Shown here: positions 9,414-25,673 of the stretch, piece after piece
Layout of the letters: each line of letters begins with the position of its first letter
How positions within the stretch are numbered: position 1 is the first letter of the stretch
Virus record (IMG/VR): IMGVR_UViG_3300030106_006480
Coordinates: 10,143 to 74,142 of that record
DNA from: a virus
DNA: 64,000 nt
Direction: 5' to 3' (one strand)
Made by a program: the position numbers and the translations under genes
The notes under the pieces: generated by a model
What the model was told of the DNA's origin: nothing
Databases searched by the model: none
What the model saw: the letters and a program-made list of their open reading frames with translations, nothing else

Positions 9414-9650
9414 ATGGAACCTTTAAAACTTGAACCATCCACAGAAGATTTGTTTTGGGAAGCAAAGATGAAGACTTACATAGAAAAGTGTGATAAAGAT
9501 GAATTGAAAGAGGTTGCTACCCTCTTGATAAGGATAGCAACCCAAAGACAGGGAGTAATTAGAGGTTTAATAAAAGACAACATGAACCTTCATTCAAAGA
9601 TTATTGAGTCTTTTCACCTACTCCCTTCTGGTGAATACTCAGAGAGCTGA
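9414..9650 (+). CDS. NblA-like phycobilisome degradation protein (candidate)
   Basis: Short helix-loop-helix STEDLFW...CDKDELKEVATLLIRIATQRQGVIRGLIK fits the NblA pattern; isolated gene against the operon direction. Confidence 0.5.
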   Translation: MEPLKLEPSTEDLFWEAKMKTYIEKCDKDELKEVATLLIRIATQRQGVIRGLIKDNMNLHSKIIESFHLLPSGEYSES

Positions 9651-10769
9651 ATCTTCACCAGTCTTTTGATCTCGTGTAGAAAGCACAGGTGCAAGCATCT
9701 TGTCCGAAATAGAAGCTTCTAATAGTTTGTTAGAAGTTTCTTTCAACATGGGAGGCATGACACCTAAAGGTGTGATTTGTACACCATCAGCAATGTTAAT
9801 AAAACCATTGCCATCTGTGTAACGGCTCATCATTCCAATTGCATATTCATCATGACGTTCCTCTTGAGTACGCTTCATAAGGTTGTCAGGAATGATATGA
9901 CTGTTTAGAGAAAGTTGAGCGGCTTCTTGTCCTTGTTCATAAACAGGACGTTCATAATCAAAAGCAGTAACAGCTGTTGACTGATTACTACCTTGACCAA
10001 CATCTTTCAATTCAAGATAAGGCTGGAAAATATATTGTGCAAAAGCATCGTAATTAGCAGGACGCTTTGGTGTTTTGGTAGCAGTTGCAAGAGCAGATGC
10101 CATATTATCTCGAAACTCTTTAAGTTGATCCCGGAAAGAAGCACCAACAGCACCTTTGATGCTAAGAATTAAAGGCATATCATGGCAACGTTGCCCATAA
10201 CCACTCATGAAATAAACGTAATACCAAGTACGAATTGTATGATCTTTCTTGTTTTCACTATATAAATCCCAAAGCATATTTATTTTTCCAGGGTCATCTA
10301 AATTGTCTGCTGGATTAAATGAACCGATAATAACTGATTTATTTGCCCCTGTCTTTTCATCAACAACATTCTTTTCAAGTAAACCAGCAGTTTCAAAAAC
10401 AATTTGAAAACGTGGTTTGTTAAAAAGGATGCCAGGAGTTGGTTCATTATTGCCACCAAACTTTTGATTGTAAGGTTGAGCAAATGAATCTGGTTCAAGA
10501 TCAGAGGCAGAAGCTTTCCAACCACACTTGATCAGATCTTCTTGCTTGATAAACAAACCACCCATATCACGGGAATGATTGCGATCATTTGGTTTATTAA
10601 TCGCAACAATTTGTCCTGGTGCAGGAGCTGCTCCTATAAATTCTGGTTGTGTGAGATGTAGAAAGGAATCAAGTGAACGTTGTTCTGGAGCTTTTTGAAT
10701 AGCAAGAGAAGATGTTTCAGGAAACAGACTAAGCGTGTTGGACTTGTCTGTTGCTTTTGCAAGTTTCAT
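9639..10769 (-). CDS. DUF5895-like protein (possible ssDNA-annealing/recombination factor)
   Basis: GGLFIKQEDL..CGW, GILFNKPR and HDMPLILSIKGAVGASF motifs; directly downstream of ssb. Confidence 0.55.
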   Translation of the reverse strand: MKLAKATDKSNTLSLFPETSSLAIQKAPEQRSLDSFLHLTQPEFIGAAPAPGQIVAINKPNDRNHSRDMGGLFIKQEDLIKCGWKASASDLEPDSFAQPYNQKFGGNNEPTPGILFNKPRFQIVFETAGLLEKNVVDEKTGANKSVIIGSFNPADNLDDPGKINMLWDLYSENKKDHTIRTWYYVYFMSGYGQRCHDMPLILSIKGAVGASFRDQLKEFRDNMASALATATKTPKRPANYDAFAQYIFQPYLELKDVGQGSNQSTAVTAFDYERPVYEQGQEAAQLSLNSHIIPDNLMKRTQEERHDEYAIGMMSRYTDGNGFINIADGVQITPLGVMPPMLKETSNKLLEASISDKMLAPVLSTRDQKTGEDSAL

Positions 10770-10793
10770 GGTGTCCGTCGGACTAGGGTTGAA

Positions 10794-10821
10794 TAGGCAG
10801 TTTTACGTCATACCCAGGACG
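10794..10821 (-). ncRNA. Family A pseudoknot element, copy 1
   Basis: minus: CGTC-CTGGGTAT-GACG-TAAAAC-TGCCTA. Confidence 0.7.
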
Positions 10822-10851
10822 ATCCCGTCAGAAGAGATAAATGCAGTCTAC

Positions 10852-11673
10852 TTAGAAGGGAGCTGGAGCACCATCTTCCATAACAGATCCTGATGGATCA
10901 GGTAGATCAGGAAGACCAGTTAAGTTAGAACCATAAGGTTCTGCTTGTGGTTTAGATTCTTGTTCCATATCAGCCCATAGCGAGCCTGGCTTCATTCCTT
11001 CAGACATAACTGTCTTTGTTTCAGGAGCTTTGTTTTGCCCATCTCTATCTGCTGGGGGCAAAGTCATCTTATCAACTTGAATTTTGACACGACTTTGCCA
11101 GTTACCTTGTTTATCTTTCCAACTGTCACATACCAGTTTGCCACTAATAGTAATTCCTTTCCCCTTCTTTGTTAGCTTGCACATCCAGTCTGCAAGTTTA
11201 TATCGATCATCTGGATTACTAATTGCATAGACATTAAATAAATCACTTTGTCCTTTACCTGTTGTAACTGCAATAGTTTGATTACAAATTATCAAACCAG
11301 TCGAGGTAATTTTAAATTGACGTTCATCAGAATCATCAACTGTTTTAATTGTGGTTCCAGAAAGAATAACTTGATTGTATGGCCTGAAAGCTTGTTTCAG
11401 AATAGTAGGAAATCCTCCATGAATAGAATGTAGTTTTGATTGAAGATCATGGCGGAGGTTAGCTCCTTGAATATGAATTGGATCATTAACTTGAACAGTG
11501 TCATGCAACTCTTTACCAGTTGCTCCATAGCACCAGTATTCCAAATCAAGATCTGATTTAGAAGGACCGGACTTTGGAATCAAAATAGGAAAGACATAAG
11601 CCTTGGATGTGTTGCTTGTATAAACCTCACGAGGTTTTTCAAGCACTTGGGCACAAACGGTAAGTACGTTCAT
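10852..11673 (-). CDS. ssb: Single-stranded DNA-binding protein (tandem OB folds)
   Basis: NQVILSG, KKGKGITISGKL..DSWKDKQG; acidic C-terminus ending APF. Confidence 0.8.
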   Translation of the reverse strand: MNVLTVCAQVLEKPREVYTSNTSKAYVFPILIPKSGPSKSDLDLEYWCYGATGKELHDTVQVNDPIHIQGANLRHDLQSKLHSIHGGFPTILKQAFRPYNQVILSGTTIKTVDDSDERQFKITSTGLIICNQTIAVTTGKGQSDLFNVYAISNPDDRYKLADWMCKLTKKGKGITISGKLVCDSWKDKQGNWQSRVKIQVDKMTLPPADRDGQNKAPETKTVMSEGMKPGSLWADMEQESKPQAEPYGSNLTGLPDLPDPSGSVMEDGAPAPF

Positions 11674-11694
11674 GATAGTTAGGTGTGTTGTGAT

Positions 11695-11724
11695 TGAAGC
11701 AGTTTAAGGTCATACTTCAGGACC
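11695..11724 (-). ncRNA. Family A pseudoknot element, copy 2 (5' leader of ssb)
   Basis: minus: GGTC-CTGAAGTAT-GACC-TTAAAC-TGCTTCA. Confidence 0.75.
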
Positions 11725-11729
11725 GTCAA

Positions 11730-13541
11730 TCAATGAACATCAAACCAAGTTTTACCAACTTTGGCATCACCTTCAATTGGACAAAGGAAGTTAAAATGTT
11801 CACCTGATTGAATAAAAGCTTTAAGAATATTTTCTTTTACAATTTCAATGTTTTGTTTAGGACAAGAAAGTTCTATTTCATCATGGATCATTGCATGTTG
11901 ATGATAATCAATACCGTAAACAAGACCAGCTTCTATTAAATTGTTATGAGTATTGATAACAACTTGCTTCATTAAAACAGCACCAGCAGCTTGGAGTAAT
12001 ACGTTTAGTGCTTTGAAATCAGAACGACAAAACAATGGACGTTTATCTAAACCAATTAAAAAGCCACGAGCCTGTAATGTTTTGGCAAGTGTATCTTTCA
12101 ATGCTTTAATAGCAGGAATACCAGTCATAAAAGAATCAATTGCATTTTTACCAAGTTGTTTTAACTTGTTTATATCTTTCTCATTTGGATCAACAATAGT
12201 ACCTGCCTTAGCTGATCCACAACCATAAAGAACTGCATAAAGCAAACGCTTACTAATATCTCTAGTTTTTACACCAAACTTTTCTTGGTTATAAATATGA
12301 ATGTCAGTGTCATCATCAATAACTAACTTGCTGTATTCACCTTCATCCCAATACGCAAGATACCCAGCCAAACATCTAAGTTCGAGAGCTTTTGCATCGC
12401 TGCCAATAAGGAACCAGTCGTCAGGAGCATGGAAAAGAGAACGACATTCTTTCCCATAAGGACTATAAGCTGCCGGAGTTTGGGCAGTGTTCGGATTACG
12501 ATGTGAGCAACGGCCAGTAATACAACCATTAGTAATAACGTCCCCATGTATATAACCATCAGGAGAGACAAGCTTGAGCCAAGCGTTGGTACCACTTTGA
12601 ATTTGGCCTAAACGTTTTTTAATTAACATGTATTCTGCCAAAGGCTGAGCTTCTGGATATGGAAGATTTTCTAAAACATCGTCATTCAAGATTGGATTAC
12701 CTTTCTCAGTTAGTTTCTCAGGAGTCCAATTATATTTATCTTTAAATCTTTGAATAATATGAGCACGAGAGTTTGGATTAAAAACTGTAACAGAATCTTT
12801 TAAACGTTTACCTGTACGTTCTGACCAACGTTCTTCAACAATTGGAGGAAAGATTTCTTTTAATTTATCTTCGATTTGCTTGCTGCGTACTGATAATTTA
12901 TCCACAAGAGACAAAGCTGCATCAGTATCAAAAGGAAAACCTGATCGAATTTGTCTCTCAATACATGTAGCAAATTCATGTTCAAGCGCAAGCGATTCCG
13001 AGTGGATAGATTGTTGTTGAATAAGTTGTAATAATTTTGTCGTAACGTTGACATCTTGAATGCAATAGGCAAGCATTTCTTCTGAAAATTCAGAGAAATC
13101 TTGGAAGTCAATCTTCTTATCTGAGAGTCTATAGCCCCATGCTTTGAGGCTAGCTGAACCTCTAAGTTTATTTGGGAGACGGTAGTATATCTCACTGTCC
13201 AGTTCTTCAAGTTTTTCTTTGGGCCAAATGAGTCTGGTGCAGATGAGTGTGTCAATGATTTGTAAAGCAGGGGAATTAAATAATTCAAAGCCAGGCCAAA
13301 GTTTCTTTAGCACTGGAATGTCATAAAACAAAATGTTATGTCCAATCAAACAATCAGCGGCAGCCAAATGATCAAGAGCATCAGTAATGCGATCAGGCCC
13401 ATAGCTAAAAGTTTGTTTTCTATTGAAGTCATATATGACGATACAGAAAATTTCTGTAACTTCATCATATAATCCATTTGATTCAATATCAAATACGAAC
13501 CAGTTTTCATGTTTGGTACCGGGCTTCAGGTTGAACATCAA
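11730..13541 (-). CDS. polA: Family A DNA polymerase (T7-like, with 3'-5' exonuclease)
   Basis: Exo motifs FDIESNG, GHNILFYD, YCIQDV; motif A DAKALELR; motif B RDISKRLLYAVLYG; motif C IHDE. Confidence 0.97.
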   Translation of the reverse strand: MMFNLKPGTKHENWFVFDIESNGLYDEVTEIFCIVIYDFNRKQTFSYGPDRITDALDHLAAADCLIGHNILFYDIPVLKKLWPGFELFNSPALQIIDTLICTRLIWPKEKLEELDSEIYYRLPNKLRGSASLKAWGYRLSDKKIDFQDFSEFSEEMLAYCIQDVNVTTKLLQLIQQQSIHSESLALEHEFATCIERQIRSGFPFDTDAALSLVDKLSVRSKQIEDKLKEIFPPIVEERWSERTGKRLKDSVTVFNPNSRAHIIQRFKDKYNWTPEKLTEKGNPILNDDVLENLPYPEAQPLAEYMLIKKRLGQIQSGTNAWLKLVSPDGYIHGDVITNGCITGRCSHRNPNTAQTPAAYSPYGKECRSLFHAPDDWFLIGSDAKALELRCLAGYLAYWDEGEYSKLVIDDDTDIHIYNQEKFGVKTRDISKRLLYAVLYGCGSAKAGTIVDPNEKDINKLKQLGKNAIDSFMTGIPAIKALKDTLAKTLQARGFLIGLDKRPLFCRSDFKALNVLLQAAGAVLMKQVVINTHNNLIEAGLVYGIDYHQHAMIHDEIELSCPKQNIEIVKENILKAFIQSGEHFNFLCPIEGDAKVGKTWFDVH

Positions 13542-14571: not shown

Positions 14572-14598
14572 CTGGGGCTTACACCAAAGGATGCCCAG
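14572..14598 (-). ncRNA. Family B hairpin element, copy 1
   Basis: minus: CTGGG-CAT-CCTTTGG-TGTAAGC-CCCAG. Confidence 0.65.
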
Positions 14599-15002: not shown

Positions 15003-15040
15003 AGTTGATGAAAAGGAGAATGACTTGTAGAATAAAGGAA

Positions 15041-15092
15041 CGTTCACCTCAATGCGAGGCGCAATTCATCCGGCCAGGGAACGGGGACCGGA
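15041..15092 (+). promoter_or_regulatory. Glutamine riboswitch class II (Downstream-peptide motif)
   Basis: CGTTCA-CCTC.AATGC.GAGG-CGCA...TCCGG...GGAACGGGGA-CCGGA; P1 CGTTC/GAACG; pseudoknot TCCGG/CCGGA; TAGAAT -10 box at 15028-15033; YRG peptide downstream. Confidence 0.85.
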
Positions 15093-15110
15093 GTATTAGC
15101 GGAGGACACC

Positions 15111-17225: not shown

Positions 17226-17262
17226 CTAGGACTTACACCGTGTCAAGGGACCGGATGCCTAG
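17226..17262 (-). ncRNA. Family B hairpin element, copy 2 (4 nt upstream of the tRNA)
   Basis: minus: CTAGG-CAT-CCGGTCCCTTGACACGG-TGTAAGT-CCTAG. Confidence 0.7.
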
Positions 17263-19098: not shown

Positions 19099-19138
19099 AT
19101 TGGGACTTACATGCAGTCGGGGAAATGCAATGCCCAAT
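19099..19138 (-). ncRNA. Family B hairpin element, copy 3
   Basis: minus: ATTGGG-CAT-TGCA...TGCA-TGTAAGT-CCCAAT. Confidence 0.7.
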
Positions 19139-19141
19139 AGA

Positions 19142-19516
19142 TTAGAACTCGATGCAGTCTGGATCGTCTGCAACCCAATCAAGATCTAGTTGATCTAAGA
19201 ATTGAATTTGTTCTGGTTGAGAACCGTCGATAGGAGGTGGTAACTCTCCTTCTTCTAGTTCAAAACACGCACTACAGACTGCTGGACCATATTCAGCAGG
19301 ATGGGCAAAATCTGCTGGATGGTAAGTTGCAGGAATTGTTTGAACCATGTCAGCAATCTCGGCAACAGAGATCCAAGAAGATGTTCCATGTTCATCGACA
19401 AGATCAAGTTCAATAGAGCGGACATAAAGAATTTCAGTCATTAGAGTTGATGTTAAGGATTTGGACCGCCGCATTTGATAATGCTTCGGCTTGGTCAAAA
19501 TACTTGTTCCACTCAT
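19142..19516 (-). CDS. Acidic hypothetical protein (likely start MTEILY)
   Basis: ORF with HPAEYGPAVC motif. Confidence 0.6.
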   Translation of the reverse strand: MSGTSILTKPKHYQMRRSKSLTSTLMTEILYVRSIELDLVDEHGTSSWISVAEIADMVQTIPATYHPADFAHPAEYGPAVCSACFELEEGELPPPIDGSQPEQIQFLDQLDLDWVADDPDCIEF

Positions 19517-19635
19517 TAGAACCGATTGGGTACTGTTGTGCCTCAGTTCTTTTGGTATCTGCTATACCTGATACAGTTTGATAAGCAACCATCAAAGTTT
19601 GGTGATCCATAGTGAAGTGTAGTGTGATGTGGACA

Positions 19636-19663
19636 TAGACAGTTTAAGGTCTTATCTAGGACC
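19636..19663 (-). ncRNA. Family A pseudoknot element, copy 3
   Basis: minus: GGTC-CTAGATAA-GACC-TTAAAC-TGTCTA; minus-strand TATAAT just upstream. Confidence 0.7.
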
Positions 19664-21941: not shown

Positions 21942-21972
21942 TACTAGGACTTACGCTGTAAGCTGCCTAGTA
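21942..21972 (-). ncRNA. Family B hairpin element, copy 4
   Basis: minus: TACTAGG-CA-GCTTACAGC-GTAAGT-CCTAGTA. Confidence 0.7.
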
Positions 21973-22443: not shown

Positions 22444-22638
22444 TTAGTTAGTTCCTCCATATTCTTTGTGATAGTCATCTTCGCCTGATACCGCTTCAGA
22501 CATAAGTTCTTGCATAAGTTGTTCTTGCTCATTAGCTATGTCGTTAAGGACAAATAACTGATCAGCAGTGTATTCAGACTTCTCCTGGTCATCGAAGTTG
22601 TCTTGTTGCTCATGGAGCCAAGTTTTGATAAGTGACAT
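22444..22638 (-). CDS. Acidic hypothetical early protein
   Basis: ORF downstream of a family A element. Confidence 0.55.
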   Translation of the reverse strand: MSLIKTWLHEQQDNFDDQEKSEYTADQLFVLNDIANEQEQLMQELMSEAVSGEDDYHKEYGGTN

Positions 22639-22663
22639 GATGCGTAGTGAAATAAGGTTTGCA

Positions 22664-22691
22664 TGAGCAGTTTAAGGACATGCTCAGGTCC
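22664..22691 (-). ncRNA. Family A pseudoknot element, copy 4
   Basis: minus: GGAC-CTGAGCAT-GTCC-TTAAAC-TGCTCA. Confidence 0.75.
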
Positions 22692-22876
22692 AAGTACTAA
22701 ATTTCGTCCATGCAGTCAGGCATGAAAGCAACGCATTCCTTGATTAGGTCTGAGTTGTTAAGGCATTTGAGAGACTCTTCAGTGTGAAAGTCATCGCTCA
22801 TATCTTCCTGACATTCAAGATAGCTATCGATCAGGATTTTGCGTTGAGCTTTGGTGATGTAGGTACTAGGCATAAT

Positions 22877-24496: not shown

Positions 24497-24568
24497 TACC
24501 TATCTCCGCTGTAGGTAATAACTGGTGGGGGCATTGCACCCCCACTGGCCGCTTGAACGGACTCAGTT
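24497..24568 (-). ncRNA. Family C tRNA-like element, copy 3
   Basis: minus: AACTG-AGT-CCGTTCAAGCGG-CCA-GTGGGGG-TGCAATG-CCCCCAC-CAGTT-AT-TACCTA...TAGGTA. Confidence 0.7.
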
Positions 24569-24844
24569 GACTTGAGCAACAATAGTTACTGCTCTACCAC
24601 CAAACTCTGGGCTATTGAACATCTTCATGCCTAACTTTGCGTCAGCCATGAATTCAATCAATGCCTTGTAAAGAGCACGGCAGTATTTCATCTGCTCTCG
24701 TTGTTGATCAGAATCATTAGCCAATAGCCAAGTCATCTGTCCTTCAGCAACAAGATAATCAACTGTTTGCAAGATATCTTCTTGGTCAACCGCTGCGTTA
24801 GCGTTGGCTTTCCAATCAAATTTCCAGCTGGTTTGAGTTTGCAT
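24563..24844 (-). CDS. First gene of the early arm, hypothetical
   Basis: ORF preceded by CACTTCACTTCATC leader and element A5. Confidence 0.6.
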   Translation of the reverse strand: MQTQTSWKFDWKANANAAVDQEDILQTVDYLVAEGQMTWLLANDSDQQREQMKYCRALYKALIEFMADAKLGMKMFNSPEFGGRAVTIVAQVN

Positions 24845-24866
24845 GATGAAGTGAAGTGAGTGGACT

Positions 24867-24895
24867 GCTACGGTTTAACGTCCATCAGCTAGACG
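24867..24895 (-). ncRNA. Family A pseudoknot element, copy 5 (divergent)
   Basis: minus: CGTC-TAGCTGATG-GACG-TTAAAC-CGTAGC. Confidence 0.55.
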
Positions 24896-24899
24896 AACT

Positions 24900-25445
24900 A
24901 CACAATCTTTCCTGGCCTTCGGGGCGGCGGAGCGCTAGATAACACAGGAAACTTGTGGAAATCTCAGGGATTTATGGCAGATTCCACAGGGATTTGTGGA
25001 TAACGCAGGTTTCGTACTGCACAGCGGCAGCCTTGGTACCCTTCGCTCAGGTATCGTTGGCTTAACTAACCTTCGCTTAGGGATTCAGGCTTCGTTCGCT
25101 GTTCACCCCAGTTTTGACCCACCCCACCCTTTATTTTTTTTCTATACGGCACCTGCGACCCACAAGGTGTGTGAGACGTCTCAGGTAATTATTAACCTAA
25201 ATGAGGTAAAAAATGGGTTGTTTGTCGCAAAGATAGTGTAATATCACCAGGAATTTGGTAAATATCCTGGGGCAATAAAGCCAATAATATTTAATATTTA
25301 GTAAAGAGTCCTAGATATTTTTATATATCCACAAATGCTGACAAAAAATATTTAATAAAATAAATATTAAGATTTAAATAATATTTTGCAGCACAAAACG
25401 TCGCTAAAACTGACGATTACCCCAAATATTTACCCCAAACCGCCT
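24900..25445. other. Non-coding divergence region; candidate replication origin and/or genome terminus
   Basis: TGTGGATAA (perfect DnaA box) at 24995-25003, near-matches nearby, CCTTCGCT(C/T)AGG repeats, AT-rich tract at about 25285-25390. Confidence 0.45.
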
Positions 25446-25673
25446 TTATTTAAGACCGTGTTTCCTGAATTTGTGCGCAGCTTCTGCTGATTTGCCATAT
25501 TTAACTTTATCTGGAGCCATTTCTGCAATCTCAAACCTACGTTCGCGTAATCGCTCCCTGATTTCACCATCAGTTGCACCAGCCCTGGCTAAATCTTTAG
25601 CTTCTTCGATGGTATTACCAAAAGCTGTTACTCTAAGAGCTTTATTTTTTACTAATTCCCTGTTATCTTCCAT
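25446..25673 (-). CDS. Hypothetical protein
   Basis: Isolated ORF. Confidence 0.55.
   Translation of the reverse strand: MEDNRELVKNKALRVTAFGNTIEEAKDLARAGATDGEIRERLRERRFEIAEMAPDKVKYGKSAEAAHKFRKHGLK

Follow-up and report, generated by a model that had tools for sequence, protein, structure and literature searches.

On the minus strand of this viral DNA, a window of 64,000 nucleotides, a compact pseudoknot lies between the genes for DNA polymerase A and a protein that binds single-stranded DNA (SSB), and similar elements lie ahead of four other genes. The initial annotation had proposed two roles for them, SSB-nucleation sites or exonuclease-blocking caps. The locus raises the question of whether the pseudoknot is a switch of the ssb gene or a device of more general use. 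The sequencing sets listed for the phage are all marine metagenome DNA.

Five pseudoknots on the minus strand

The five sites given in the initial annotation were confirmed, and all of them fold alike on the minus strand, as H-type pseudoknots of 28-30 nt. The layout consists of a 4-bp stem 1 (S1), a loop 1 of 1-2 nt, a stem 2 (S2) with 6-7 bp and a linker, U(U/A)AAAC, which reads UUAAAC in four of the five copies and UAAAAC in copy 1. The H-type fold, the compensatory changes in both stems and the near-invariant linker described beforehand were borne out, and one copy does lead ssb. This is copy 2 (11695-11724; like all features below, on the minus strand), with S1 GGUC/GACC, a 7-bp S2 UGAAGUA/UGCUUCA and a score of 40.6 bits in a covariance model. 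It starts 5 nt past the stop codon of the DNA polymerase A gene (11730-13541, 603 aa), and the next gene downstream is ssb (10852-11673, 273 aa; PF00436, E 2.8e-8; phrog_44). The SSB is of the bacterial OB-fold type and had no match to the T4 gp32 family.

Copy 1 (10794-10821; S1 CGUC/GACG, S2 UGGGUA/UGCCUA, 37.7 bits) starts 30 nt past the ssb stop codon and precedes a DUF5895 gene (9639-10769, 376 aa; PF19247). Copy 3 (19636-19663; S1 GGUC/GACC, S2 UAGAUA/UGUCUA, 41.3 bits) precedes a 58-aa ORF without a family match (19434-19610). Copy 4 (22664-22691; S1 GGAC/GUCC, S2 UGAGCA/UGCUCA, 48.5 bits) is identical to the family consensus. It starts 5 nt past the stop codon of the ORF at 22697-22873 and precedes a 64-aa ORF (22444-22638), whose homologue in the related loci L022 and L093 also has a pseudoknot in front. 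Copy 5 (24867-24895; S1 CGUC/GACG, 19.8 bits, E 0.0025) is divergent; its S2, read from the letters as GCU(G)AUG/CGUAGC, has 6 bp and a single bulged G, and loop 1 is 2 nt long (UA). It comes first among the copies in the early arm, closes a stretch of about 540 nt without an ORF on the same strand and precedes a 93-aa ORF (24563-24844).

The distance from the end of the knot to the next AUG was 24, 21, 25, 25 and 22 nt for copies 1 to 5. The leader that separates copy 2 from the ssb AUG (11674-11694, 21 nt) contains neither a G nor a Shine-Dalgarno sequence, and the other leaders (10770-10793, 19611-19635, 22639-22663 and 24845-24866) are G-poor and likewise lack a Shine-Dalgarno sequence. 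Family-wide, the 22 nt 3' of the pseudoknot average 15% G.

The minus strand holds 87 T[TA]AAAC sites. The linker and a G+C-rich 4-bp S1 occur together only at the five sites, and four of these also have an S2 of at least 6 bp in the same register. There is no sixth copy in the whole 74,142-bp genome, and the next-best match of the covariance model in the window scored 13 bits, below all five sites. Since the five sites are part of that model's training set, the independent support comes from the copies in other phages. A chance origin of the five sites is excluded. Minimum free energy folding of single copies gave z-scores of -1.9 to +0.4 with a program unable to predict pseudoknots. As judged from the sequence, each copy is predicted to be transcribed within a long early message.

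A family of phage RNA pseudoknots

A degenerate-pattern scan of IMG/VR gave at least 119 matches. Both stems, defined as all four pairs of S1 and at least five of six pairs of S2, form in 91 of the matches listed; only 10 of 122 pattern matches in bacterial genomes form both. When partners were permuted among the 83 distinct 28-mers of the matches listed, 11.7 ± 2.9 passed, compared with 58 observed. A sequence-only model then yielded 139 distinct copies, in which 96.0% of cells are paired, against 24-39% when the partners were slid. Across these 139 copies there were 163 double-change cells (48 in shuffles), and three of the four S1 pairs and four of the six S2 pairs covary. The sense strand carries 41 U-G and 17 G-U wobbles, which on the opposite strand would appear as A-C mismatches. 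Since both stems covary and the wobbles are confined to the sense strand, the element is an RNA with a real structure. Of 118 copies, 96 have the pseudoknot on the strand of the gene and 1 has it on the opposite strand.

In the consensus layout, a single C crosses S2, which has 6-7 bp, and the linker is U(U/A)AAAC. S1 has 4 bp (3 bp in some phages), and its loop-closing pair, C9-G19, was found in 134 of 134 scorable copies. Twelve positions (C9, C10, U11, A17, G19, U25, A27-C30, U31 and G32) are invariant in the 139 copies, although the sequence-based search accounts for part of this invariance. The second linker base tends to track the second S1 pair, being U in 62 of 79 copies with a G-C pair and A in 12 of 16 with an A-U or U-A pair.

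Rfam had no family matching at the five sites at gathering level or at the consensus copies, pistol and preQ1 included, and Rfam 15 holds no model that matches the element. At the SA13, phig1e, StB12 and KC5a loci, where the knot stands in front of a GP20 or scaffold gene, neither GP20-a (RF02991) nor GP20-b (RF03003) matched at E values up to 1. A literature search by motif letters returned unrelated primer matches only, and the accessible parts of published accounts of phage structured RNAs contain no match to the pseudoknot. The five sites are members of a large uncatalogued family of phage RNA pseudoknots.

One locus from a Saprospiraceae MAG (L159) carries a tandem 32-nt array in which S1 and the linker are present. 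A type III antitoxin-like array was considered there and rejected, given its poor S2 and the absence of a toxin ORF nearby.

Among cultured phages, the intergenic matches belong to phages of Firmicutes, Cyanobacteria, Actinobacteria and alpha-proteobacteria, with carriers that infect S. aureus, Lactobacillus, Bacillus and Synechococcus; none was found in enterobacterial phages. Good copies occur in one Vibrio phage lineage and in CrAss-like phages as well. Most beta- and gamma-proteobacteria have only the RNase E/G-type enzyme (PMC3997798).

Possible roles of the pseudoknot

The family precedes genes, tRNAs and ribozyme-like RNAs, many of them unrelated, in about 80 distinct phage fragments. 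A tRNA lies 2-5 nt 3' of the pseudoknot end in five loci, and GIR1-like RNAs follow the knot directly in several. Staphylococcus and Lactobacillus phages carry one copy ahead of the scaffold and major capsid genes, and syntenic relatives of the present phage carry the knot also ahead of GP88 and PcfJ-like genes. A Shine-Dalgarno sequence follows the knot in some family members and is absent in others. These observations show that the element is generic and tied to no single gene. Among 82 non-redundant loci, no ORF family co-occurs with the motif as a phage-encoded partner; the most widely shared protein family reaches at most 13 loci, and those 13 are the window's own relatives. The lack of a broadly shared protein family argues for a partner that is host-wide or for none at all.

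The spacing of the knot is also characteristic. The gap from the upstream stop codon to the knot is almost never below 4 nt (mode 5), so that termination of a ribosome does not require unwinding of the knot. The distance from the knot to the start codon peaks at 16-30 nt (mode 22) and is mostly at least 16 nt, so a 30S subunit can still bind. This spacing fits a structure that must stay folded. Where relatives have a further ORF between polA and ssb, the knot keeps its place about 19-21 nt before the ssb AUG.

Given these features, we favour, at a probability of about 0.42, the reading that the pseudoknot is a folded block protecting the downstream RNA from 5'-to-3' decay, as in the exonuclease-blocking caps proposed initially. 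The polycistronic RNA would be cut upstream, and a 5'-to-3' exonuclease would then meet the knot and stop, so that the leader and the gene behind it survive; elsewhere the protected unit would be a tRNA or a ribozyme-like RNA. If the host is a cyanobacterium, as presumed, RNase J would be the enzyme; 5'-end-dependent entry of RNase E may be blocked likewise. The layout and the analogy with coremin, an exonuclease-resistant motif of eukaryotic RNA viruses that is compared below, suggest that the linker lies in the minor groove of S1. The knot would need no dedicated protein and would act as a mechanical block just outside the ribosome footprint on the start region. The host range speaks for this reading, with no match in enterobacterial phages and only an RNase E/G-type enzyme in most beta- and gamma-proteobacteria, whereas the copies in the one Vibrio phage lineage and in CrAss-like phages count against it. 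No usable S. aureus RNase J 5'-end map over prophage capsid genes was found. A 28-nt protein-free shield could explain unequal gene levels within one phage operon, candidate cases being the scaffold and capsid versus portal genes of Staphylococcus and Lactobacillus phages and the individual early genes here. If the reading is true, the element would offer a very small portable mRNA stabiliser for bacteria. The cultured S. aureus, Lactobacillus, Bacillus and Synechococcus phages that carry it make the idea directly testable.

Such a general shield for phage messages is more likely than a switch of the SSB gene. In such a switch, SSB would spread from the knot over the leader and repress translation at low levels of single-stranded DNA, much as T4 gp32 acts on its own mRNA. 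One copy does lead ssb, and a copy at this place is kept in five relatives (L085, L082, L017, L016 and L074). The knot also has a geometry like that of the T2/T4 gene 32 pseudoknot and an unstructured leader behind it. However, the same element stands before unrelated genes, GP88 and PcfJ-like genes among them, before late structural genes, tRNAs and ribozyme-like RNAs and in phages of many phyla, the ssb slot of the closest relative found (L022) holds a different hairpin, termed family B, and the leader is just 21 nt long and the SSB bacterial in type. SSB nucleation or autoregulation, as the initial annotation had suggested, is therefore highly improbable. A related-locus search with the phage SSB protein found no locus. 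The 12 invariant junction positions, the linker base that tends to follow the second S1 pair and an architecture like that of small pseudoknot aptamers such as preQ1-I would suit a specific partner, either a protein that hosts of many phyla have in common or a small ligand for which the conserved helical junction is the binding site. We regard this as very unlikely, since there is no expression platform (S2 is clear of the ribosome binding site and start codon), the downstream genes are too diverse to answer to a single metabolite, a pocket would have little space in a fold whose loop 1 and junction measure 1 nt each, no Rfam riboswitch matched, no protein co-occurs, and the invariance owes something to the search method. 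The possibility that TAAACT serves as the -10 box of a DNA-level promoter, with transcription starting from the 3' edge of the motif, has a negligible probability. Copies 2 and 3 do show TTGACG-17-TAAACT and TTACAT-17-TAAACT, and functional RNA units start right after the motif, but at the remaining copies no -35 match is present, the region has fewer promoter-like sites than its shuffles (30 vs. 44.3 ± 7.6), and stem covariation with sense-strand-only wobbles is not expected of a duplex DNA site. The promoter reading was rejected on the wobble covariation and the missing -35 boxes.

Two further explanations concern the genes on either side of the knot. It might be a translation device that forms the upstream edge of the ribosome landing site, whether by insulating the G-poor leader, as a standby or S1-docking element, or as a barrier that keeps terminating ribosomes from sliding on; taken jointly, these variants are unlikely. 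The tight AUG distance and the G-poor, unstructured leaders, often without a Shine-Dalgarno sequence, speak for them, as does the position of the knot 5-8 nt past the upstream stop codon, which is the spacing of recoding pseudoknots. Coremin stops scanning ribosomes and promotes -1 frameshifting (PMC10520033, PMC10321173), and tisB standby translation requires a 5' pseudoknot (PMC7708055); the study on S1 and a pseudoknot concerns the preQ1 aptamer (PMC7038950). Yet the copies that lie 2-5 nt before tRNAs or abut ribozyme-like RNAs serve no start codon, in Firmicutes phages 57-142 nt separate the knot from the scaffold gene downstream, and the element occurs both with and without a Shine-Dalgarno sequence. 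The pseudoknot could instead belong to the 3' end of the upstream gene, blocking 3'-to-5' exonucleases once the RNA is cut downstream or, with a U-run, aiding termination. In 41 of the 99 copies that could be scored, the knot starts 4-12 nt past the stop codon of the upstream gene, and where a tRNA follows 2-5 nt further on, RNase P cleavage would make the knot the 3' terminus of the upstream RNA. A U-run comes after about 17 copies, and in one locus (L023) a TTGACA-17-TATAAT consensus promoter lies just 3' of the knot; these copies look more like 3'-end elements and count against the shield. Nevertheless, U-runs are absent at all five window copies, no gene lies within about 540 nt upstream of copy 5, the L017 knot lies about 75 nt past the upstream stop codon and 19 nt before ssb, and the coremin block is known for the 5'-to-3' direction only (PMC6546385, PMC10520033, PMC10321173). 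A 3'-end role for the family is quite unlikely.

Comparison with known pseudoknots

The pseudoknot of the T2/T4 gene 32 leader is a compact H-type fold with a 1-nt loop 1 over an S2 of 6-7 bp and a loop of 6-7 nt over S1. The T4 knot and copy 2 both stand in the leader of an SSB gene with unstructured RNA downstream. However, the gene 32 leader is about 40 nt or more, much longer than the 21 nt here, and there is no sequence similarity. The gene 32-type knot is specific to the leader of its own SSB gene, whereas the phage element is not confined to ssb and its five copies in the window precede five different genes. For all the similar geometry, coremin is a much closer match. Gene 32 has no model in Rfam, according to one account (PMC10690425).

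The window's element was also compared with three other small pseudoknots. The -1 frameshift knots of BWYV and PEMV-1 have a conserved loop 1 C, a junction from which one base is extruded and a loop rich in A that occupies the S1 minor groove. Luteovirus-type knots and the phage element are both about 28 nt long, but S2 has 3 bp in the former and 6 bp in the latter. No frameshift setting was found, the phage sites being intergenic with no slippery heptamer 5-9 nt upstream and no overlapping -1 frame; the upstream frame stops 5-100 nt before the knot, and past the polA stop codon the next in-frame stop follows after 16 codons. STAXI, which the initial annotation had named as a precedent, is a pseudoknot-containing motif near ssb-type genes that is thought to act as single-stranded DNA, whereas the phage element is sense-strand RNA. 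The STAXI check gave no match at the sites, either in a cmscan at E values up to 10 over 10700-11800 or in the gathering-level Rfam search. The preQ1-I aptamer is also a small H-type fold, with an A-rich 3' tail in the minor groove of stem 1; unlike it, the phage knot has a loop 1 and a junction of 1 nt each. No preQ1-I (RF00522) match was found, the downstream genes are unrelated to queuosine, and the end of S2 leaves 16-30 nt to the AUG and 5-12 nt to any Shine-Dalgarno sequence.

By sequence and layout, the phage knots look like an extended form of the coremin motif. To our knowledge, exoribonuclease-resistant RNAs (xrRNAs) are known only from eukaryotic RNA viruses. Coremin, or xrRNA-C, is found in beny-, cucumo- and many other such viruses (PMC6546385, PMC10520033, PMC10321173). 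Its hp1 has 3-5 bp and a pyrimidine-purine (C-G) loop-closing pair (PMC6546385), and the phage S1, of 4 bp (3 in some) with C9-G19 closing the loop, has the same form; S1 of copies 1 and 5, CGUC/GACG, is the BNYVV coremin's own stem. The hp1 loop consensus is YGAD or YGNNAD, loops of 6-8 nt are functional, and an 8-nt loop, CGCAAAGC, can function; in the BNYVV context, however, a CCGAAA loop with G third was not Xrn1-resistant (PMC6546385, PMC10520033, PMC10321173). The first base and the last two of the phage loop, C-U-G-N-N-Y-A-(U/A), fit coremin, but its second base is U and G comes third. The spacers are alike in 8 of 9 nt, UUAAACUAC in coremin and UUAAACUGC in the phage (consensus U(U/A)AAACUGC). 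In the coremin spacer UUAAACUAC, A16-A20 are essential and U14A is tolerated (PMC6546385, PMC10520033, PMC10321173), and the U14A variant (UAAAAC) occurs naturally in both coremin and the phage knot. A27-U31 are invariant in the phage spacer, whose position 20 is a G pairing with Y16 where coremin has A. Coremin has been modelled as an H-type pseudoknot with adenines in the S1 minor groove (PMC6546385, PMC10520033, PMC10321173). Both elements can be present in tandem or as multiple copies, and both are found in intergenic regions and in UTRs.

The two elements also differ. The coremin S2 consists of 3 pairs, the phage S2 of 6-7 bp that are fully Watson-Crick. For Xrn1 resistance, coremin strictly depends on a second hairpin, hp2, which follows the spacer directly and has at least 3-4 bp (PMC6546385, PMC10321173). 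The phage knot has no hp2, and its 3' strand pairs back into the hp1 loop instead. Among 117 copies, a hairpin of at least 4 bp at 0-3 nt past the knot was found in 32, compared with 28.3 ± 3.8 in shuffles, and the folding energy downstream of the knot is at shuffle level. The lack of a conserved hp2 and the U at loop base 2, where coremin requires G, count against the shield reading. The BWYV pseudoknot is comparable in size to coremin and, like other frameshifter pseudoknots of similar size, does not stop Xrn1, so compactness alone is no predictor of resistance (PMC10321173). The likeness to coremin could be convergence on a stable fold and not shared function.

At coremin, Xrn1 stalls one nucleotide before hp1 (PMC6546385, PMC10520033, PMC10321173). 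The motif also halts scanning ribosomes and promotes -1 frameshifting in reticulocyte lysate, and variants derived from it, screened separately, produced a -1 frameshift reporter signal in E. coli colonies (PMC10520033, PMC10321173). None of the papers searched deals with both coremin and phages. The phage knot belongs to bacterial viruses with DNA genomes, for which RNase J, not Xrn1, would be the enzyme that matters, and a flaviviral xrRNA also stops bacterial RNase J1 (PMC5760640). We suggest, tentatively and with some doubt, that phages carry a true xrRNA class whose core (stem 1, the loop ends and the UUAAACU linker) is common with the coremin of plant, fungal and invertebrate RNA viruses. 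If so, one solution of about 20 nt would stop RNase J in bacteria and Xrn1 in eukaryotes, and phage polycistronic messages would be divided into cistrons that are each armoured. It may then be asked whether the coremin core was exchanged between bacterial and eukaryotic viruses or found twice by them.

The pseudoknot family in the window and in other phages

The five minus-strand sites (copy 1, 10794-10821; copy 2, 11695-11724, before ssb; copy 3, 19636-19663; copy 4, 22664-22691; copy 5, 24867-24895) were present as the initial annotation had read them, and they fold as H-type pseudoknots (hereafter, knots). The layout from 5' to 3' is stem 1 (S1, 4 bp), loop 1 (C), the 5' strand of stem 2 (S2, 6-7 nt), a junction base (U/A), the 3' strand of S1, the linker U(U/A)AAAC and the 3' strand of S2. 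Copy 5 is divergent: its loop 1 has 2 nt, and its S2 was read as 6 bp plus a single bulged G. Only five of the 87 minus-strand T[TA]AAAC sites have a G+C-rich S1; these are the five copies, and four of them have an S2 of at least 6 bp in the same register. Looser scans across the whole phage genome gave no further copies. A covariance model ranked the five copies at the top (48.5 to 19.8 bits; next match, 13 bits). Since all five were training sequences, this ranking is not independent support, and the independent evidence lies elsewhere.

The pattern GNNCCTNNNNAWGNNCTWAAACTG, which leaves the inner stem positions unconstrained, had at least 119 matches in at least 117 IMG/VR loci. Among the 119 matches listed, 91 had S1 paired at 4/4 and S2 at no fewer than 5/6 positions, and 62 had 6/6. 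Of the distinct 28-mers among the matches listed, 58/83 passed, compared with 11.7 ± 2.9 after permutation of the 3' halves. Across bacterial and archaeal genomes totalling 596 Gb, the same pattern gave 122 matches, only 10 of which passed; these may belong to prophages and were found in assemblies of Lactobacillales, Clostridia, Akkermansia and the like. A sequence-only model (R1) yielded 153 hits across the window and 99 loci, frequently several on a contig and on one strand. In the R1 alignment, 96.0% of cells were paired, compared with 24-39% when the partners were slid by 1-3 columns. Double-change cells numbered 163 versus 48.4 in shuffles, and two-sided changes occurred at three of the four S1 pairs and four of the six S2 pairs. 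The pseudoknot reading of the initial annotation holds, with compensatory changes in both stems.

The knot loci cluster into 82 groups (90% identity), and any one ORF family occurs in 13 of them at most. Knots also occur in Roseobacter phage SIO1 and S-EIVl, in Lentibacter, Celeribacter, Paracoccus, Rhizobium, Bacillus, Streptococcus, Arthrobacter, Mycobacterium, Nostoc and Microcystis phages, and in cyanomyoviruses, crAss-like phages and one Vibrio phage lineage. The last, that of Vibrio phage D456 g1, is the only gamma-proteobacterial phage lineage found with the knot. A good copy there lies within a cluster of very small ORFs (L245:2219-3268; L-numbers denote loci of other phages or contigs) that are annotated against the direction of an otherwise plus-strand operon and may be mis-called. 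A tandem array at the end of a Saprospiraceae MAG contig (L159:2783-2884, minus strand) has at least 3.5 units of 32 nt with the S1 and linker of the knot and an S2 pairing at only 4/6 positions. No ORF of at least 80 aa lies beside it; it resembles type III antitoxin repeats, with nothing in support of that identity.

The phage genome is a single contig of 74,142 bp (38.8% G+C), of which the window covers bases 10143-74142. Its minus-strand early arm (~5000-25700) contains small early genes and replication genes, including those for DNA polymerase A, SSB, ThyX, GP88, a PcfJ-like protein and DUF5895. The structural genes (terminase, virion structural protein, major head protein and tail fibre) follow on the plus strand from 25768. 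Rfam matched a glutamine-II riboswitch and one tRNA in the window, and nothing else. The riboswitch aptamer, at 15038-15093 on the plus strand (54.2 bits versus a gathering score of 33), is antisense to the early arm and supports a cyanobacterial host. We consider a marine cyanobacterial host likely, because the nearest match of the polymerase region is Synechococcus phage S-EIVl, and the sequencing runs containing phage DNA are marine metagenomes only.

Position of the knot and the units behind it

In all five copies, 21-25 nt separate the knot end from the AUG, and the leaders behind them are poor in G and lack a Shine-Dalgarno sequence. For copies 2 and 4, the knot begins 5 nt past the stop codon of the preceding gene. 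Across the family, the distance to the start codon peaked at 16-30 nt (mode, 22) and the gap after the upstream stop codon at 5-8 nt, being shorter than 4 nt in just one copy. For copies 12-35 nt from the start codon, a Shine-Dalgarno-like sequence was present in 18 and absent in 42. Upstream of copy 5, ~540 nt (24896-25445, minus strand) without a minus-strand ORF extend to the ORF at 25446-25673. This stretch has an AT-rich promoter-like part followed by G-rich blocks, gave no Rfam match, and could represent an extended structured leader or a noncoding RNA.

The knot precedes ssb in five syntenic relatives (L085, L082, L017, L016 and L074) as it does at copy 2, where the initial annotation had placed it, and precedes the DUF5895 gene in L085, L082, L016 and L074. 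In relatives with an extra ORF between polA and ssb, the knot is still ~19-21 nt before the ssb AUG. Several syntenic relatives have extra knots before the GP88 and PcfJ-like genes, positions that in the window hold a different hairpin, previously termed family B; the ssb slot of L022, the closest relative found, is itself a family B element. The two elements look interchangeable within the same slot. Family B hairpins (minus strand, 14572-14598, 17226-17262, 19099-19138 and 21942-21972; in the relative, L022:10040-10072) have the layout GGGCA..hairpin..GUAAGYCC and are followed by an AUG after 24-31 nt or by tRNA-Leu after 4 nt.

In cultured phages, a single knot separates the head-morphogenesis gene from the (GP20) scaffold and major capsid genes, as in S. 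aureus phage SA13, StB12 and Lactobacillus phages phig1e and KC5a. The SA13 knot is at L242:1501-1528, other Staphylococcus/Lactobacillus siphovirus loci are L238, L240 and L241, and a U-run sometimes follows. For SA13, 83 Staphylococcus phage records matched. These siphoviruses offer tractable systems for tests of the knot. In five loci (L023, L037, L060, L079 and L091), a tRNA gene begins 2-5 nt past the knot end. GIR1-like RNAs of ~180-200 nt lie directly 3' of the knot at L025:768-966(+), L048:1546-1750(-) and L053:1874-2053(-), matching the GIR1 lariat-capping ribozyme model (RF01807) weakly (26-40 bits, E 2e-6 to 0.016; gathering score 100). The downstream sequences of L030, L031 and L092 are similar and have long conserved core blocks in common with them. 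The RNAs behind the knot in L025, L048 and L053 may represent a class of phage ribozymes derived from group I.

Competing accounts of the knot

The knot is an RNA structure on the sense strand of the genes. At pair 16:32, 88 copies have C-G and 41 have U-G, and at pair 12:35, 17 copies have G-U; these wobbles would become A-C mismatches on the complementary strand. The strand of the neighbouring ORFs carries the knot in 96/118 cases and the opposite strand in one, a chance pattern match without S2. The sense-only wobble pairs and the strand bias exclude both a site in double-stranded DNA and a hairpin promoter on the template strand. A promoter reading, to which TTGACG-17-TAAACT at copy 2 might point, is also unlikely given this evidence for RNA, and the region contains 30 promoter-like sites including that one, compared with 44 in shuffles. 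Autoregulation by SSB, as initially suggested, is unlikely as well: the knot serves many genes, is replaceable by another fold (family B at ssb in L022) and has no companion protein, indicating that it is generic and not a gene-specific operator or SSB device. A STAXI identity, raised by the initial annotation, is not supported either, as Rfam searches of the knots gave no STAXI, preQ1, pistol or GP20 motif.

A role in translation, as an insulator, standby site or ribosome stop, would account for the tight spacing between knot and AUG but leaves the copies before tRNAs and ribozyme-like RNAs unexplained. Formation of a 3' end for the upstream gene is a further rival that fits the short gap past stop codons and the U-runs behind ~17 copies; it does not explain copy 5, nor the L017 copy, which follows the upstream stop by ~75 nt and precedes ssb by just 19 nt. 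Binding of a ligand or another protein is possible, since twelve positions at the junction are invariant and the linker shows what may be a base-triple correlation, although there is no expression platform and the downstream genes lack a common theme. In the A2 alignment (columns 7:21 and 26), copies with G-C as the second S1 pair tend to have U as the second linker base (62/79), and those with A-U/U-A tend to have A there (12/16). These counts, uncorrected for relatedness, hint at a minor-groove base triple.

Possible exonuclease blocking and the comparison with coremin

A conserved, generic sense-strand RNA pseudoknot stands at the front of RNA units. We hold with limited confidence that an exonuclease-blocking cap, the second alternative of the initial annotation, is its best current explanation. 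The knot in a phage message would halt 5'-to-3' decay and so protect the leader together with the unit that follows, whether a gene, a tRNA or a ribozyme-like RNA. The spacing would suit a fold that must persist: judging from general ribosome geometry, the 5-nt gap would place the knot start approximately at the mRNA channel entrance of a ribosome with the stop codon in its A site, and a gap of at least 16 nt to the AUG would leave the 30S footprint free. In a BLAST-based, non-quantitative survey, cultured phages with intergenic copies lean to particular host groups, which presumably carry RNase J; enterobacterial phages are absent, and the Vibrio lineage is an exception to this lean. A flaviviral xrRNA forms a mechanical block of a general kind that halts bacterial RNase J1 (PMC5760640). 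Coremin (xrRNA-C), an element of eukaryotic RNA viruses, stalls Xrn1 one nucleotide before its first hairpin, hp1 (PMC10321173, PMC10520033), blocks scanning ribosomes and stimulates -1 frameshifting (PMC10321173). A separate screen of E. coli colonies picked up a frameshift reporter signal from coremin-derived variants. Against exonuclease blocking, coremin resistance requires the second hairpin, hp2, and ordinary frameshifter pseudoknots do not resist Xrn1 (PMC10321173).

Among the papers searched, none connects coremin with phages. The BNYVV coremin consists of hp1 (CGUC-CGAA-GACG), hp2 and, between the two, the spacer UUAAACUAC, whose bases A16-A20 are essential and which tolerates U14A (PMC6546385). 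Coremin loops of 6-8 nt are functional when Y is first and A-D last (PMC10520033), and the model is an H-type pseudoknot in which loop bases 6-8 pair with spacer bases 18-20 and adenines lie in the stem 1 minor groove (PMC10321173). The phage knot has the same C-G closing pair, a loop that begins with C and ends with A then U/A, eight of the nine spacer bases and also the UAAAAC variant; copies 1 and 5 bear the CGUC/GACG stem of BNYVV itself. It differs in a U at the second loop base, in an S2 lengthened to 6-7 Watson-Crick pairs through four extra loop bases, and in having no conserved hp2. Given this shared core and these differences, we class the knot as a look-alike variant of coremin rather than a proven member. 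This variant, absent from Rfam, dispenses with hp2, has a long S2 and occurs in DNA phages.
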